64,000 nt of DNA from Candidatus Bathyarchaeota archaeon (GCA_963782525.1 CAWAKC010000007.1:288001-352000), one strand, 5' to 3'. Shown: positions 36,507 to 42,714, numbered from the stretch's first letter. The notes: generated by a model from the sequence alone, not told the origin. Numbers and translations are program-made.

Positions 36507-37223
36507 AGTACTTCCGCTTCGCGCCTTTAGCAAATAGTAGAAGGGGTTATAAACGTTGCCATCAAAAACGCAAAAGTGAGCGCAACCTTCGAAAAAGAAA
36601 TTTAGCAACTCAATTGCGTGAGTTGTTAGAGTATTTTAATTGTTAGCTATCTTTTGCAATGGATAAAGATTTCTGCTTTTAAAATAAACATTTTTTTGTT
36701 GGGTAGCATGTTGTTTGAGCAAAGCTTTGTGAAGACGTTTTCTTTGATCTTTAAAAACTGGCATGTGTATGCAATAATAGCTTTCAACCTTTATGTTGTT
36801 TGTGTAAAGTGTTAATAGAATTTTTTTTCACAACATTTGTTTCTCGCTAATTGCGATTTTTTGCCTTCTGTGATTTGGGTTAATTGTTGCAACCGCTTTG
36901 CAAAATGCAGGTGCAACAACAACTTCTCTGGCGCTTACTATCTCAACCAATTAAACCATCAAGATGGCAGAATACTGTAATTAGGTTAGTTTTGAAAGAT
37001 GCAACAGTCGATGTGCAAAACTTCAATTGCAGCAGCATCAGCAGCAGCAACTTTTATTTGATTTTGATTTGGTTGGTTTCGGATTGGGTTGTTTTCGGGG
37101 CTTTCAAGTTTGTGGTATGAGTTAGTTTGTGGATTCTCTCGGGCTCGATAAAAGGAGTGAACTGAAATTATCGTAGTCGCACTGAAAACTCTTTTAGCCA
37201 CAACACCAAATCATATGGCTGGA

Positions 37224-37348
37224 GCCGGGGTGGCGGAGTGGTTATCGCGCCAGCCTCGAGATCAAACAAAAGAGGGCTAAAGCCAGAAATGGCAAGATAG
37301 CTGGTGGGCTTCGTGCTCGCAGGGGTTCGAATCCCTTCCCCGGCGCCA
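37224..37348 (+). tRNA. tRNA-Ser(CGA) with a 38-nt intron at 37/38 (37261-37298) and encoded CCA
   Basis: Acceptor stem GCCGGGG/CCCCGGC, discriminator G, anticodon stem CCAGC/GCTGG, loop CT-CGA-G^A, long variable arm, GGTTCGAATCC T-arm. Confidence 0.92.
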
Positions 37349-37489
37349 TTAATCGTTTTATTTAGTTTTTCTGAAGCTTCAAACCTATTAACAAAAAATG
37401 GCTTGTTAGTCGAAACAGGATAAAATCCTAAAAGAGATAATATAGATTTTCAGCCAAAAACAACCACATCCGCAGTCCAATACTTTGTA

Positions 37490-37805
37490 GAAGAAGAAAA
37501 ACGGCTGATTCCCACAGAAAAAACCCGTTCTCCTTCTTTCCACCACAATCAAAGCCCAGTATAATTGAAAGAAGAAGACACTGACCTGCACACATCCACT
37601 GTCTTCTTCTACCTGTCAAGGGAAGAAGAAAAATCGGTTTTTCCCTAATAGCAATTTTGTCTTCTTCCAACTTAAAGCAAATTTCCTTTTGCGAGGCATC
37701 AATTAACGGGTAGAAGAGAAGGTTGTTGAGTTGCCACCGTCTTCTTCTTTTAAAACTATTATTCCAAAAGAACAACAACACTTGCAAATGGCGTGTTGTT
37801 GTTCT
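37490..37805. repeat. Array of five related inverted repeats, consensus about AGAAGAAGAC-Nx-GTCTTCTTCT
   Basis: Units at 37490-37536, 37570-37610, 37621-37668, 37712-37748, 37769-37805. Confidence 0.8.
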
Positions 37806-38059
37806 ACCATCAGTTGTTAATGCTCATCCACACCTTAGACGATAACGTTACAGCTACCTTCCACAGGTGAATATTGCTCCTAAAGTGAAAACCTCTTCTA
37901 CGAGTACTGTGTTCGATTGTCTGGTGCTTTAGGGCTGAGTAAACTTGTCAGCATTGACAAATTACAGTTAACTAATTTTATATTCAGGTTTTTACTAAGT
38001 TATAATCATTCGTTTTGGCGTTTTTTAATTAATGTTAGACACAGAGGTGATAAAAAGTA

Positions 38060-38365
38060 TTAAATAACAATTTGTTGAGTAATGATGGGTGATACTATTT
38101 CTGTTGCCCTTTCATCTATCCCTCCTGTGGTGATATCGAATGTCCATGTATCGTCAGGGTGTATTAGGGTAAGAGGTTTTGTAGAATAGGGTTTTATCCA
38201 CCGATTTCCTGCAACTTTTATGCATACGTCAACTCGAAAATCAGAATTGTTAACGTGATGAACGGACTCAAACAGATCATCTTAGCTTCCGTATAGCGGG
38301 ATATAGCTGAAAGAAATGGTTGGTGTTTCTTGGTTATCTAAAGTTTGGCTTTCCAAGTTGTTGGG
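38060..38365 (-). pseudogene. Decayed C-terminal domain of the GH17-like gene
   Basis: Same frame continues past the TAG: PTISFSYIPLYGS*...WIKPY...PLT...WTFDITTGGIDERATEI. Confidence 0.7.
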
Positions 38366-39523
38366 CTATGTTTGGCCGTTGAATATTTTATCCATGTTTG
38401 TTTTGAAACTTCCATTATTGTCCCAAATGCCCCAATGGACGCCTACGGCGCCCTCGTTTGTTTTCCAGGGCTCATCGAACGCTTCAAAATACATAAACGA
38501 GACGTTGCTTGACTTAGCCCATGATACAAAAGTCATGAAGAAGTATCGAGCGTTTTCGGGTGATGGAATGGCGTTTCCAATTTTGTTGCCTGCGCTTGGC
38601 CAGCCAGTTTCTGCAATTATCACTGTTTTTCCGGCTGATGTGGCTATGATCTGTTGGTATGTAATGTTTAGGTGGAATAAGGCTTCATCTACGTTGACTC
38701 CTTGCCAGAAAGGATAGATGTTGGGCATTATGAGGTCGCATGCGTTCATTACTGCTGGGTGTCTTAGTAATTCGGTGTCAGTGTCTGCGGTTGTTACAGG
38801 TATTTCTGGGACAGCTTTCTTGACAGTGTGCATATAGTCTATTAGTTGGGATTCTGTTAAGTCACCTCTAAGAAGCACTTCTGAGCCTACTATGAGAATG
38901 TCTGCATTGCCAGCCTTACCTACGCTTATGAGGTTTGCGATTTCTTGCTGGTTTGCCGTTGTGTCAGAGCTTAGCCATGCCTGGGCAGCTACATTTATAT
39001 TCATTTCATTTGCTATAACGCCTACTTTTTCGAGGCCATGGGTACACCCATAGGTTCTGATCCATTGCGTGTATGGCTTTACAGTGGTCAATAGGTTCCT
39101 TATTTGGTTCTCTGAAATGATCGTGCCGTAGCTTGGATCTTGTCCTGTTTGAGTGAATGGGCTGAAATCCAATCCATATGCTTGGTATGGTGCTGAGAGG
39201 TATAGGGTGATTGTCTTGTTGGAGGTCATGCTAACTGTTGTTGGGTTGGTTGAATTGCTTTCTGTATTATTCCATGCGCTAAACGTCCAACCCTTACTTG
39301 GTGTTGCTATTAGACTTACAGATGAACCTGCTGGGTAGACATGGTCTCCGGCGGATGGATCAGAGGTTCCGTTGCCGATGATTATTATTTTGAGCGTGTA
39401 AGAGGAGAGTATCGGTGAGGGAATAGGGCCAGGAGATATAGCTCCAAAATGTATTGCTGTAGCAAAACCGATAACAAGTGCTACAATAAGGACACCAATT
39501 AGCAATAATCGCTTCTTTTTCAT
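38366..39523 (-). CDS. Membrane-anchored GH17-like beta-1,3-glucanase/transglycosylase with small N-terminal beta repeat
   Basis: WIRTYG, VGSEVLLR, IAETGWPSAG, YFEAFDEPWK, HWGIW; N-terminal TM. Confidence 0.88.
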   Translation of the reverse strand: MKKKRLLLIGVLIVALVIGFATAIHFGAISPGPIPSPILSSYTLKIIIIGNGTSDPSAGDHVYPAGSSVSLIATPSKGWTFSAWNNTESNSTNPTTVSMTSNKTITLYLSAPYQAYGLDFSPFTQTGQDPSYGTIISENQIRNLLTTVKPYTQWIRTYGCTHGLEKVGVIANEMNINVAAQAWLSSDTTANQQEIANLISVGKAGNADILIVGSEVLLRGDLTESQLIDYMHTVKKAVPEIPVTTADTDTELLRHPAVMNACDLIMPNIYPFWQGVNVDEALFHLNITYQQIIATSAGKTVIIAETGWPSAGNKIGNAIPSPENARYFFMTFVSWAKSSNVSFMYFEAFDEPWKTNEGAVGVHWGIWDNNGSFKTNMDKIFNGQT

Positions 39524-39534
39524 CCTGTTTTACC

Positions 39535-40290
39535 CTATTTTGTTAAAGCGTTGGTTGGTTTTTCTATAAGGCCAATTTTTAAGTATGCTACTGCTAGACC
39601 ATATTCGGCATCGCTTCTTATACTAATTAAAGGATTAATCATCCTATCGGTTGGCACAGTGCTAATGTATGTTAATGTTTCATTAAAGGCCTTTATTGGG
39701 TCGCATGCAGAAGAAGGAAAACAGTACAGCGCGGAAATTCCTTTATATAACATTAATTCTGGATCACTAGGAGAATAAGTTGCAGCTTCGCTAAAGCATT
39801 GATAACTAAAGTCAAAGAGGTGAGTATCCATTTCTTCTGTGTAATTACTTGAATTCCCACAATAGTCTATCAAAGACTTTGCATAGCTATATGGAGGCCT
39901 AATATTGGCCTTAACTAAAATAGTCGCATTGTTAATTCCCCAGTCCAAATAAGCAAGCCCCTCACTTCTCAAAACCGAGGGTGAACGCCTAAAGATTTCT
40001 AACGCAGCATCATAAGAGTCAATAGCTTTTTGATAATTTTGGCTATTAAGAAACTTATTACCTTGTGTTATGTCCTCTTGAAAGCTCAATTCTTGGTGAG
40101 GAGCGTTTTCAATGTGGTCAAAAATGCTTACGAATAAGCTCAATGACGCTATAAGCGATGTCACGACCATAATTTTTTGTGTCGTAGTGAGATGCGGAAA
40201 CTTTAGCCATCTTGGGAGCCGCCTCGTTTTGTGATTGTCATGATTAACCTTTGTATTTGTTGAATTAGGATGAGATTTTCTCCTAACCAT
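39535..40290 (-). CDS. Membrane-anchored TPR-like protein
   Basis: TM helix, then QGNKFLNSQNYQKAIDSYDAALEI and YGLAVAYLKIG TPR-like segments. Confidence 0.7.
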   Translation of the reverse strand: MVRRKSHPNSTNTKVNHDNHKTRRLPRWLKFPHLTTTQKIMVVTSLIASLSLFVSIFDHIENAPHQELSFQEDITQGNKFLNSQNYQKAIDSYDAALEIFRRSPSVLRSEGLAYLDWGINNATILVKANIRPPYSYAKSLIDYCGNSSNYTEEMDTHLFDFSYQCFSEAATYSPSDPELMLYKGISALYCFPSSACDPIKAFNETLTYISTVPTDRMINPLISIRSDAEYGLAVAYLKIGLIEKPTNALTK

Positions 40291-40312
40291 TTTTAGCTGG
40301 TCCCCTCAGTTC

Positions 40313-41323
40313 TTAGACGAATTGCAAATCATCTAAATAGAAGGTGCAGCCGTTGGGATTTTGATCTGTATTGGTGACCCAGGTGAATCCGCCCACAACA
40401 TGGCTTAGATCTTTTCCTGTTAAGTCAATTGTGTACTGCTGCCATTGAGCTGAGAGTGTAACTACCGCTGGTTCTGTAGTAACCGCTGGCTGAATCGAGT
40501 CAGGAAACTGTCCAGAAATGCCGCCGACTTTGAACTCGCCTTTCTCACCACCGATTTCGCCGCGAGCCCAGAATGTTAGTTTTGTTACTCCTGTAAGATC
40601 TCGTCCGCCTGTTTTGTCTCCCCAATTGTTAGTTGGGTACTGCCAATAGAGGCCCGCCCATTCGTTACCTTGTGACCCTGCTGCAGAGTAAGTGATTTTA
40701 ATACAAAGAGGTGTTGAATGTGGATTGTTTGTTGAAGCAGTGTCTAATTTGATATCACCCCAATCGCCCATCCATCCTGAGGCATAGAAAAGATTGGTGA
40801 CTGACATAGAAGGGCTTACATCGGATCCAGCTGTAATGTGTAGAGTGTATTTGCAAGAATGTTCTTTACTTTCCTGTGCTCCGATTGCGTATATTGTTAT
40901 TGTGTAGGTTCCTACAGAAGCGTTAGGGCTTGCAGACACTGTTAAAGTAGACGTGAAAGTTGGAGTTGGTTTTCCAATCGGACTGTTAAAAGTTACTGAA
41001 ACGTCTGTCGATTGTTCAGGGGCGCTAAGACTGACATCGTATGGGTATTTTTCCGCTTGCTGGATAGTAACAGTCTCTTGTATAGTGTGACCTTGTTGAA
41101 CCGTACCTTGTATAGGATCAACAGATACGGTGAAATCGCTAACGGGCGCGCGCATATTAGCAAATTGTGGATAGAGACCAACTACCCCGACAACAGCAGC
41201 TATAATTGTGGCTATACTTGCGATTGTTAGCGTATTTTTTTGATTTTTTGACAGACGCCCTTTTCTTTTGGTGGAATTAAAAAATGAATAAATATTTATT
41301 CTTGAAGTAAACCACTTAGCCAT
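40313..41323 (-). CDS. Membrane-anchored Ig-like plus carbohydrate-binding (CBM11/galactose-binding-like) protein
   Basis: TM helix; GTYTITI Ig-like domain; SGWMGD, WAGLYWQ, DLTG..KLTFWARG, WQQYTIDL, FYLDD. Confidence 0.75.
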   Translation of the reverse strand: MAKWFTSRINIYSFFNSTKRKGRLSKNQKNTLTIASIATIIAAVVGVVGLYPQFANMRAPVSDFTVSVDPIQGTVQQGHTIQETVTIQQAEKYPYDVSLSAPEQSTDVSVTFNSPIGKPTPTFTSTLTVSASPNASVGTYTITIYAIGAQESKEHSCKYTLHITAGSDVSPSMSVTNLFYASGWMGDWGDIKLDTASTNNPHSTPLCIKITYSAAGSQGNEWAGLYWQYPTNNWGDKTGGRDLTGVTKLTFWARGEIGGEKGEFKVGGISGQFPDSIQPAVTTEPAVVTLSAQWQQYTIDLTGKDLSHVVGGFTWVTNTDQNPNGCTFYLDDLQFV

Positions 41324-41366
41324 GCCTATACACCCAAAAATCCTTAAATATCATATGTTAGTTCTT

Positions 41367-41439
41367 GCTATATAAGATTTTCAAAGATGAAAATCTGGAG
41401 CTATTTACTTCAAACAGGCTCAAAGAGTGGAGCTATTTA
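41367..41439 (-). promoter_or_regulatory. Candidate promoter/operator of the island cassette
   Basis: TTATATA on the minus strand near 41370; 9-bp IR AGATTTTCA-N4-TGAAAATCT at 41375-41396; direct repeat TGGAGCTATTTA at 41396 and 41428. Confidence 0.5.
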
Positions 41440-42080
41440 ATTAGAAATGATACAGGAGTTTGGTCATCGCCCATATTAGCTGACGATATAGTCTATTTTC
41501 ATTAAAACTATTGTAGCTTGTATGCTTTTGGAAACACAAATCATACCCCTCTCGCTATGATAACTTCTTTAAACTTGCAACTCTAAATACAAACGGACTT
41601 ACCCCTTGCTAACTTGTATGATTGCAATAACATCTAAAGAAAAACTATTCATTCAGTAGCGAGAGTATTTACATAAAAAGTGCGAGAAACTCATCTGTCA
41701 GTTTAGTTAAAAAAATAATTTGAAAAAAAATTCTCCTGAATCTTCTATAACGTGAACTGACAGATGCAGGTTCAGGACCTTAGGCTCTAATTAGTTGCTT
41801 CAAACCGTTAATTTACTGATAAAAAAAGAAAAAGAAGGGACACAAAAATCCAAACTAAATTTACTGATGACATCACTAGGTGCTCCGTGGCCCAAATTAG
41901 ACCAAGAACACTTTATCAAAGAGATAAGCTGATTGTTGAAAAAAAGGTGACTTTGCGAGAGATTTGCCGTTTTAATATTATAGATGCCACAAAAGACCCG
42001 TGTGTTTTCAGTAGAGCTTACTTTAGAAAAAAAAGGGAAAGTTGCGGAGAAACTTGAGTGCTGATATCGCCTCTTTCACT

Positions 42081-42106
42081 GGGGTTTGAATCCCTTCCCC
42101 GGCGCC
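42081..42106 (+). repeat. att-like copy of the tRNA-Ser 3' end
   Basis: GGGGTTTGAATCCCTTCCCCGGCGCC versus tRNA 37322-37347, one mismatch. Confidence 0.92.
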
Positions 42107-42698
42107 TTTCAACAGTATTCACGGCAGCTATTCCCTTGCATAAAGTACGGCTTTTTAGTTAGCATTCATAAGTTATCATAGCAGTCTTTGTGGCAGATTT
42201 TTCCGTACGTTTCTTGACGTATCCCTGTACTTGTATTGTTTAGACAAAATCTGGCTATAGGTAGGATCACCTTACTAAAAGAAACCCTTCACCTCAATCA
42301 TTTTTTATTTATATTTCGGAAGGCTTTGAACACGGATATGTGGCAAGATCTCGGATTTTCGAATGGAAATTCACAGGCAGATTAGAACCAAGAGCTGTTA
42401 AGGCAGTGAATTATTAAGAATTGCACGGCTGTTCCTAAAATAGTTTGCAAAGAATCACGCTCTCTCACAAGAACTCCTAAATGTCGCAGAAAATAGATCC
42501 GTCAACATACAACCACACTCACACCCACACAACCCAACATAGCAACAATGTTGACTGTGTGGCACAATCCCTCTCCCACACTCAAACAGCAAGCCAAAAA
42601 CAGCCCAAACCAAAAAAGCAACCATTCCCAAAGCCACAAGTGTGGTGTGCAATCCTACGCCACCACACCCACACAAAGAACAAAAAACGAATAGCATA

Positions 42699-42714
42699 GG
42701 GTTCAAATCCCTTC
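42699..42714 (+). repeat. Second, shorter att-like copy of the tRNA T-arm
   Basis: GGGTTCAAATCCCTTC, 15/16 match to the tRNA. Confidence 0.6.

Follow-up and report, generated by a model that had tools for sequence, protein, structure and literature searches.

A five-hairpin array beside a tRNA-Ser gene as a probable copy of a genus-restricted, REP/BIME-like mosaic repeat in Bathyarchaeia

The REP/BIME mosaic repeats of bacteria are a classic feature of genomes and are tied to a dedicated transposase; REP palindromes have a conserved tetranucleotide tag, GTAG or CGTC, at one end, and a fixed order of modules is unusual for REP clusters. The BOX elements of Streptococcus pneumoniae are modular boxA-boxB-boxC repeats, and in integrons there is one folded attC site per cassette beside an IntI-type integrase and attI, a system of which archaeal examples exist. 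The closest described system to the repeat considered here is that of the REPs, BIMEs and REPINs of Enterobacteria and Pseudomonas, as set out in the portions of PMC2817692 and PMC3116915 drawn on here. In the same portion of the first of these papers BIMEs are described as 'regularly spaced REPs in alternating orientations' (PMC2817692), and in the part of PMC3733652 used here GTAG is given as the tag of one of two large REP superfamilies. In this study we analysed an array of five hairpins that lies a short distance past a tRNA-Ser gene in a 64,000-nt stretch of DNA (the window) belonging to a Candidatus Bathyarchaeota genome of 2.87 Mb in 12 contigs. We consider it probable that this array is a copy of a non-coding mosaic repeat, interspersed in the genome and specific to the lineage of one Bathyarchaeia genus, and that the repeat is an archaeal counterpart of the bacterial REP/BIME (or BOX) repeats.

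The five inverted repeats that a first-pass annotation had reported were recovered at the same positions by reading of the sequence, and three of them (units 2, 3 and 5) also by a repeat search. Their spacings, approximately 80, 51, 90-91 and 57-58 nt, and the start of the array 139-142 nt past the end of the tRNA are also as that annotation described them. The array and its parts are as follows.

37482..37807, + strand: composite array with modules H1-H2-H3-SPalt-H4-Nb; nhmmer profile match C7:325482-325807, 237 bits, the window copy being itself part of the profile
37487..37541, + strand: unit 1, H1 type; from the sequence, with H1 copies in other loci and genomes
37565..37613, + strand: unit 2, H2 type, of opposite polarity; from the repeat search and a 12-copy alignment
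37620..37671, + strand: unit 3, H3 type; homologous units at C3:376072, C11:25396 and C7:41444
37672..37707, + strand: spacer SPalt; the same spacer at C1:176806, C3:34243 and C3:363302
37708..37753, + strand: unit 4, H4 type; from the sequence, with H4 copies elsewhere
37766..37808, + strand: unit 5, Nb type; from the repeat search, the class being recurrent in the genome and genus

Unit 1 has a GTAG head, (GAA)n arms with two A.C mismatches, a TTCCCAC motif in its loop and a degenerate tail. Unit 2 has a TTGAAAG tail at the left, a CTAC head at the right and the loop CTGACCTGCACACATCCAC between arms (37570-37583 and 37597-37610) that are 93% complementary in the repeat search; an identical copy of its 41-nt core occurs at C3:111630. 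The (GAA)n-A-rich arms of unit 3 (37621-37633 and 37656-37668, 92% complementary by the same search) enclose the loop CGGTTTTTCCCTAATAGCA, and no head is recognisable. It is followed by SPalt, which occupies the place where other copies have a (CAA)n hairpin and a spacer ending in TTAACGGGT. Unit 4 combines a GGTAG head, imperfect arms, the loop TTGTTGAGTTGCCAC and a TTTTAA tail, and unit 5 has a CTACC head at the right and (CAA)n/(TTG)n arms of 13 perfect pairs (37769-37781 and 37793-37805, 100% complementary in the repeat search). Unit 5 had been regarded in the first-pass annotation as a variant of the other units, changed in both arms with its pairing preserved. The perfect pairing stands, but the unit is not a compensatory event within one hairpin; it belongs to a separate and recurrent stem class with arms AGAACAACA...TGTTGTTCT, whose pattern is matched exactly 17 times in this genome and 0 times in the control. 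The loops of these (CAA)n hairpins likewise fall into few types.

As a whole the 336-nt array folds far better than its dinucleotide shuffles on both strands, the check that had been proposed for it. The fold of the + strand reaches -91.7 kcal/mol against -64.4 +/- 4.4 (z -6.27) and that of the - strand -110.2 kcal/mol against -81.7 +/- 5.0 (z -5.66), and in each case 0 of 100 shuffles were as good. Folded singly as ssDNA, units 2 and 5 form strong hairpins (z -4.5 and -5.4, with 0/200 shuffles as good for either), unit 3 is moderate (z -2.4, 4/200), and units 1 and 4 are decayed or imperfect copies (z -1.8, 12/200, and z -0.5, 59/200 respectively). The weakness of these last two suggests that the window copy is partly decayed. 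No credible gene covers the array, as had been annotated, the sole spanning ORF (37428-37787, - strand, 119 aa) having no Pfam match at E<=1. A decayed coding sequence was rejected on this ground, and also because the ORFs found on arrays fall on differing strands in different copies.

Homologous arrays do occur elsewhere, and the window array is one of 41 loci of a family that is dispersed through this genome. The pattern GAAGAAGA N8-50 TCTTCTTC, which represents the (GAA)n hairpins, has 42 matches on each strand of the genome against 11 for the reversed control, and the loops of these matches are of a few recurring kinds. In the comparison across genomes the (GAA)n pattern had 38 exact matches here, against 6 for its control. 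A BLAST search with the 655 nt past the tRNA of the window gave 33 more pieces on ten contigs at 72-90% identity. Pairwise scoring of loops left 99 of 151 hairpins unassigned and a profile search was used instead. The nhmmer profile, built from 14 copies that as seeds match by construction, gave 91 matches which fall into 41 loci; in 25 of these the score is at least 45 bits. Comparison of 19 clusters, 14 of which were aligned by MAFFT, established the module order H1 - spacer 1 - H2 - H3 - (CAA)n hairpin (Na or Nc) - spacer 2 - H4 - second (CAA)n hairpin (Nb). The window array aligns colinearly with the 13 other copies in that alignment, the spacers sp1, sp2 and SPalt recur among the aligned copies, and any module may be absent. 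The composites are 150-400 bp long and are located between genes.

The unit from which these composites are assembled is an asymmetric palindrome of approximately 40-50 nt, consisting of a (G)GTAG head, an arm, a loop, a complementary arm and a CTTTCAA tail. The arms contain three to five GAA (or CAA) triplets, as (GAA)n/(TTC)n or (CAA)n/(TTG)n, and the loops, which are 13-30 nt long, define about eight unit types that are kept across species. Adjacent units run in opposite directions, head-to-head and tail-to-tail, and in the best-kept copies (C11, C1:217k and C2) the head and tail tokens alternate as hL tR tL hR. The window copy has the GTAG head at the left in units 1 and 4 and the CTAC head at the right in units 2 and 5. 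By eye, a TTTCC(TAC) core is common to the H1, H3, H4 and Nc loops, and this resemblance suggests that the unit types may be diverged copies of one ancestral unit.

The distribution of the repeat among genomes follows the genus closely. The (GAA)n pattern was found in 14 of 24 genomes of the same genus with up to 44 matches, against 0-3 in the controls, the highest counts being those of G023 (44), G010 (30), G007 (28), G012 (25) and G001 (17). In other families of the order it occurred in one of 16 genomes, as a single match. The (CAA)n pattern was present in 13 of the 24 congeners and in 0/16 genomes of other families, with all controls at 0. Since G022 has 11 (CAA)n hairpins to one (GAA)n match, and G015 six to one, the two classes appear to vary partly independently. 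Loop types vary by species, and some are dominant in G007 and G009. A prokaryote-wide scan with one genome per species gave at least 109 stretches; among the 80 matches listed, 72 are from Bathyarchaeota/Bathyarchaeia MAGs and the other eight from scattered bacteria, one of these with an H4-like loop. BLAST of the array against three large or complete Bathyarchaeota records gave only 4-6 weak matches in each, not enough for array orientation to be mapped. A viral origin was also considered and set aside, a scan of viral contigs having yielded two loci (a single H4-like hairpin and a chance match) and no link. In a full-text literature search, judged by titles and the starts of abstracts, no account of a repeat of this kind from these archaea came up. 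The comparisons above demonstrate the family together with its architecture and its spread at the level of the genus, and the repeat is best described as a new, genus-restricted, REP/BIME-like mosaic repeat.

Of the three options offered in the first-pass annotation, a REP-like repeat comes closest. The Bathyarchaeia units resemble REPs, BIMEs and REPINs in being short imperfect palindromes with many intergenic copies, and they share with REPs and BIMEs an asymmetric GTAG tag at one end, which begins 14 of the 17 strictly tagged head-to-tail units. As in BIMEs, neighbouring units of a cluster alternate in orientation and are separated by set linkers. The species-specific sequence, the patchy spread and the preference for gaps next to the 3' ends of genes are further points of likeness to REP/BIME. 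The repeat differs from REP/BIME in its archaeal host, its triplet-repeat arms, its long, type-defining loops conserved across species, its preferred unit order, and in that no RAYT/Y1 transposase co-occurs with it. Three Y1/HUH transposase genes (PF01797, the RAYT family) are present in this genome and no such hairpin was found within 5 kb of them, except for one unrelated weak one. The congeners G001, G007, G010 and G012 have 17-30 hairpin matches and no PF01797 match, and G002 and G016 have 10 and 7 PF01797 matches and 0-1 hairpin matches. In view of this missing adjacency, and of the lack of co-occurrence among the 24 congeners, a link to RAYT or IS200-IS605 enzymes was rejected. The combination of triplet-repeat arms with no RAYT suggests either that such repeats evolved convergently or that a different enzyme is involved. 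Like BOX elements, the Bathyarchaeia repeat is a modular, hairpin-forming intergenic mosaic of variable module content, but it is not known to have any sequence relation to them, and its unit design is different and its host an archaeon. With its tagged palindromes, alternating orientation and intergenic mosaics, it represents a clear case of the REP/BIME design in an uncultivated archaeal lineage.

The positions of the arrays relative to genes were read from a map made with a crude ORF picker (ORFs of at least 100 aa; 78% of the genome coding), on which 34 of the 41 loci are intergenic and seven overlap an ORF of at least 100 aa. Some of the ORFs at these seven loci are clearly artefacts of the repeat, as in the window. 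The 34 intergenic loci comprise 11 in convergent, 15 in tandem and eight in divergent gaps, against 390, 1210 and 450 respectively of the 2050 gaps genome-wide. Convergent gaps are thus enriched for arrays, and no type of gap is excluded. At C1:176k, C3:34k and C7:41k, among others, the array nearly fills the gap between two stop codons. The direction of an array is unrelated to that of the flanking genes; array orientation was mixed with respect to the genes in the seven tandem-gene loci among the 15 strongest. Orientation nevertheless runs in long same-strand blocks, all five arrays of C1 and all 12 of C3 being '+' and those of C10 being two '+' followed by five '-'. Such blocks are not predicted by a purely passive repeat and they count against the reading preferred here, as does the set order of the modules. 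Cumulative GC skew and gene-strand bias on six contigs gave no usable signal that would link these runs to replication. Only one gene family recurs near several arrays, that of a large, paralogous secreted protein found in five places; as a candidate partner enzyme it was rejected, segmental duplication being the more likely explanation.

Comparison of three loci between the window's genome (G000) and its congeners proved informative about how arrays persist and change.

C1:176k: array present in G010 and G023, absent from G001 and G012; identity to G000 of arms 93%, loops 62%, spacers 71%, flanks (mostly coding) 88%
C7:41k: array present in G010, G023 and G001, absent from G012; identity to G000 of arms 85%, loops 64%, spacers 54%, flanks (mostly coding) 83%
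C3:34k: module content species-specific in G000, G010 and G023; array absent from G001 and G012

At some of these orthologous sites the arrays are stable between conserved convergent genes in three to four species. Their arms are far better conserved than the loops or spacers, and the modules themselves turn over. At C3:34k G000 has H1b-H2-SPalt-H4, G010 has a (CAA)n unit at the place of H1b together with H4, and G023 has a single H1-type unit only. The SPalt of G000 is replaced by a (CAA)n unit in G010 and G023 at C1:176k, and at C7:41k G001 has an H1-like unit where the other genomes have H3. The three aligned sites showed neither a target-site duplication nor a clean insertion footprint. 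A further kind of change is seen in the H4 loop, which among eight tagged units occurs in both orientations, five against three, with head and tail unchanged.

The first-pass annotation had taken the paired change in unit 5 to suggest selection on structure or symmetry. When 12 H2 copies, drawn from eight or more genomes, were aligned, 84.8% of cells were paired, a share that fell to 46-66% with the partner slid, and seven of the 17 pairs were invariant. The covariation score of these copies, 0.070, equals the shuffled mean of 0.070, and 233 of 500 shuffles scored as high, so for this one unit type and its 12 copies selection on structure is not borne out by covariation. A separate count on 16 copies likewise gave no covariation. 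Conservation of the arms as sequence, combined with flipping and exchange of loops and modules, fits DNA-level processes acting between copies and between the two arms of a unit. Such a pattern fits poorly with an RNA whose loops matter. The conservation of the arms could equally reflect selection for an RNA hairpin, an ssDNA hairpin or a binding protein.

A possible source of these changes is known. Template switching is described, in the part of PMC8794818 drawn on here, as giving rise to loop inversions and to multi-base compensatory changes without an intermediate state. The Bathyarchaeia hairpins resemble those template-switch hairpins in their perfect arms, multi-base matched changes and inverted loops; the hairpins treated in that part of the paper belong to RNA genes, whereas here the structure is a DNA repeat and template switching would by analogy be likely only as its mutational mechanism. 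We infer that the element exists at the level of DNA, and that template switching, together with recombination or gene conversion between copies, may keep the triplet arms perfect, flip the loops and exchange the modules. No process by which copies spread was directly observed. A putative protein that recognises the arms could also take part. Where an array is transcribed within a 3' region, the strong hairpins of either strand could stop or protect transcripts. The window copy may have arrived with the tRNA-Ser island described below or may have settled in it.

The best reading of the array is a REP/BIME-like DNA repeat that is neither an RNA gene nor a site special to this tRNA, and we rank the alternatives to a DNA-level repeat in the order RNA gene, recombination site, classical MITE. 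It is unlikely that the hairpins constitute a structured non-coding RNA family, either as multi-hairpin RNA genes or as 3'-UTR elements that would serve as terminators, stabilisers or protein-binding RNAs. The strong fold on both strands, the conservation of orthologous arms to the same extent as flanking coding DNA and the enrichment in convergent gaps would all be expected of such a family. The complement of the H1-to-Nb strand also folds better in 19 of the 25 strong loci (-1806 against -1612 kcal/mol in total) and has more G.U pairs (236/2048 against 146/1860), which could hint at a functional strand. However, the better-folding complement simply contains more G+U, and in the window copy the two strands have similar shuffle z-scores. 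A structured RNA would be known by base pairs that covary and by one strand that is consistently transcribed, and neither mark was found: the arms of the 12 H2 copies do not covary and the orientation of arrays relative to tandem genes is mixed. The H4 loop is the reverse complement in three of eight tagged units, a change that alters an RNA loop but not duplex DNA, and modules are lost or swapped at orthologous sites. By eye, no common promoter-like sequence stands 5' of H1 in the copies compared. The multi-hairpin ncRNA put forward in the first-pass annotation is disfavoured by the inconsistent strand, the flipped loop and the turnover of modules taken together. The annotation's statement that the array belongs to no named RNA family holds, Rfam at E<=10 giving only sub-threshold miRNA-like hairpin matches and no family match.

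The position of the window copy gives rise to a second alternative, and the features of that site are as follows.

37224..37348, + strand: tRNA-Ser(CGA) with a 38-nt intron; Rfam RF00005, 47.4 bits (37224-37345), and aragorn -i, C7:325224-325348
37349..42079, no strand: strain-specific island of 4.73 kb at the 3' end of tRNA-Ser; empty site in G023
38366..39523, - strand: secreted protein, its C-terminal part glycosyl hydrolase 17-like, also with an InlB B-repeat-like domain; PF00332 3e-13, PF18998 1.1e-8
39535-40290, - strand: TPR-like protein; Pfam matches below curated cut-offs
40313-41323, - strand: membrane-anchored protein with a weak PKD-like match; Pfam matches below curated cut-offs
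42080..42107, + strand: right copy of the tRNA-Ser 3' end (attR-like); 25/28 nt identical by fuzzy search and alignment

The tRNA was missed by ARAGORN at its default settings and found with the -i option. Its last 28 nt (37321-37348) form the left, attL-like copy of the island's direct repeat, and the island consists of the array at the tRNA side followed by the three - strand genes. In G023 the tRNA-Ser runs straight into the sequence that in the window lies past 42107; homology runs to the end of the tRNA and resumes at window position 42081, with a 30-nt overlap. Every congener that aligns at this place loses homology to the window at the tRNA-Ser 3' end, and the island genes were found at more than 65% identity in 0/5 congeners. 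The array does therefore lie just inside a tRNA integration site, as the first-pass annotation proposed from the sequence, the evidence being this 28-nt repeat with three mismatches and the empty site. The array is not, however, confined to this tRNA site or tied to the lost element of which that annotation spoke: only four of the 41 loci have a tRNA T-arm motif within 1.2 kb. An association of the family with tRNAs was likewise rejected as unconvincing, since the six T-arm motifs in these four loci compare with about two expected and both features are intergenic.

It is nonetheless conceivable, if improbable, that the array serves integrative elements as a recombination module, with repeated arms that act as arm-type or accessory binding sites, or as attC-like folded sites, for a recombinase that inserts at tRNAs and shuffles segments. 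Apart from the window copy, 140 nt inside an island whose site is empty in a relative, the order of features at C1:576k is consistent with this: tRNA-Arg, an array, a tRNA-3'-like fragment and then the same A/C-rich repeat (repB) that follows the window island. At C9 a tRNA-Tyr is followed by a 530-bp insert, a repeat of the tRNA end and then an array. The variable region C3:361-392 kb, where 12 array loci all run in the same direction, shares segments with G023 in a different order, and several of the segment ends, though not all, abut arrays; the edge of the array at C1:217k is where synteny with G010 and G023 is lost. Against it are the share of loci near T-arm motifs, four against about two expected by genome share, the presence of only one of eight tyrosine-recombinase matches within 5 kb of an array and none in the island, and breakpoints without an array, such as the B|C junction at C3:368362/368368. 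The stability of arrays between conserved convergent genes in three to four species is also against it. No match to PF00589 was found in C3:356-398 kb or in the window island, and no recombinase or integrase was found among the Pfam matches of the three island genes and the ORFs of 41362-42072.

With attC sites the repeat has in common that its inverted repeats are imperfect and combine conserved outer arms with a variable centre, and the same-orientation series in C3:361-392 kb is like a cassette array. Unlike attC, there are several hairpins per site, the segments are multi-gene, the flanked genes are on both strands, no integron integrase is nearby, and many copies lie between conserved core genes. 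A related idea, to which we would give little weight, is that the units are working sites of an archaeal recombination system, in which an enzyme unrelated to RAYT would recognise the GTAG-(GAA)n hairpin in order to insert, flip and exchange DNA. Recognition in such a system would perhaps take place as DNA is replicated and on a single strand, and the long same-strand runs would then be explained. If this were true the arrays would mark where exchanged gene segments meet and where tRNA islands end, and the repeat would be an attC- or REPIN-like system of Bathyarchaeia.

Very unlikely is a classical MITE, that is, a non-autonomous transposon mobilised by a transposase acting in trans on unit pairs with GGTAGAA...TTCTACC as their inverted ends. 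Such ends are indeed present on unit pairs, the repeat is patchy among congeners (0-1 (GAA)n matches in G022 and G002, 17 in G001), and its presence varies at orthologous sites. However, the three presence/absence sites show no target-site duplication, searches with PF01797 and PF00589 gave no full-length or autonomous partner with these ends, and Y1 transposases do not co-occur with the repeat. The copies are also only approximately 72-85% alike, which argues against a recent burst. An intrastrand triplex (H-DNA-like) of the arms, of the kind dealt with in the part of PMC4666352 drawn on here, was dropped by reasoning, the purine-pyrimidine-purine-pyrimidine alternation and strand polarity being wrong for a pyrimidine motif and the (CAA)n arms not being homopurine.

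As a REP/BIME-like DNA repeat, the family offers a ready marker for this genus of Bathyarchaeia, and in MAGs of the genus it is likely to be behind assembly breaks and rearrangements. It is also a natural data set for the upkeep of perfect hairpins through loop flips and module exchange at fixed sites. The genus that carries the repeat is made up of uncultivated soil archaea.

Across the whole genome of the window's own archaeon (G000), the orientation of the composite hairpin arrays switches about 5 times in about 30 neighbouring pairs, and long blocks of arrays on the same strand are found within contigs C1, C3, C10, C9 and C4. The strand of the genes does not determine these blocks, and an analysis of GC skew along six G000 contigs gave no signal that would account for them.

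At two G000 places arrays are found close to sequence derived from, or resembling, the 3' end of a tRNA:

C9:227642-228349, tRNA-Tyr followed by an insert of 530 bp, at whose borders the tRNA 3' end is repeated over 35 nt
C1:576847-576881, a 35-nt fragment resembling a tRNA 3' terminus (T arm, acceptor strand and CCA)

On C9 the hairpin array begins 27 nt past the second copy of the tRNA-Tyr repeat. The insert contains two small ORFs, both on the minus strand, which, as judged by eye only, may be of a toxin-antitoxin-like type. The order on C1 is tRNA-Arg(GCG), then the array and, directly after it, the 35-nt fragment, to which no intact tRNA of G000 could be matched within 4 mismatches.

Large secreted proteins (about 440-930 aa) of one paralogous family also adjoin arrays, at five places in G000:

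C3:358682-361255, secreted-protein paralog
C3:376209-378878, secreted-protein paralog
C3:379417-382218, secreted-protein paralog
C2:47327-49783, secreted-protein paralog
C11:22758-24068, secreted-protein paralog

Genomes of the same genus hold many paralogs of this family, with DNA identity of about 70%. Comparison of C3 with G023, the congener with an empty tRNA-Ser site, revealed a mosaic:

G000 C3:356000-398000, mosaic variable region, compared with G023 C10:286000-323000

Segments shared between the two regions differ in their order. One of them, a 4.15-kb glycogen-branching-enzyme/glycosyltransferase segment, has an identity of 95% to G023 and 93% to a second congener, G012, whereas core flanks are at 83-92%.

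Three IS200-like Y1 transposase genes were located in G000:

C3:60238-60591 and C3:287795-288148, two identical copies
C7:224408-224767, a further copy

In lists of the flanking ORFs of at least 100 aa, judged by length alone, none of the three has a neighbour as large as TnpB (about 400 aa).

Two other dispersed repeats were observed in the window. The first, repA (36880-37057), has the start of the rpl3 operon on one side and tRNA-Ser on the other; BLAST gave 18 matches in G000, and congeners also hold many. The second, repB, is an A/C-rich repeat of about 200 nt located past the island at 42470-42710, with 15 BLAST matches in G000 and many also in the congeners G010 and G023. Its end is the T-arm-like GGGTTCAAATCC, and five copies follow a tRNA gene or a tRNA 3' fragment at a distance of 100-400 nt.
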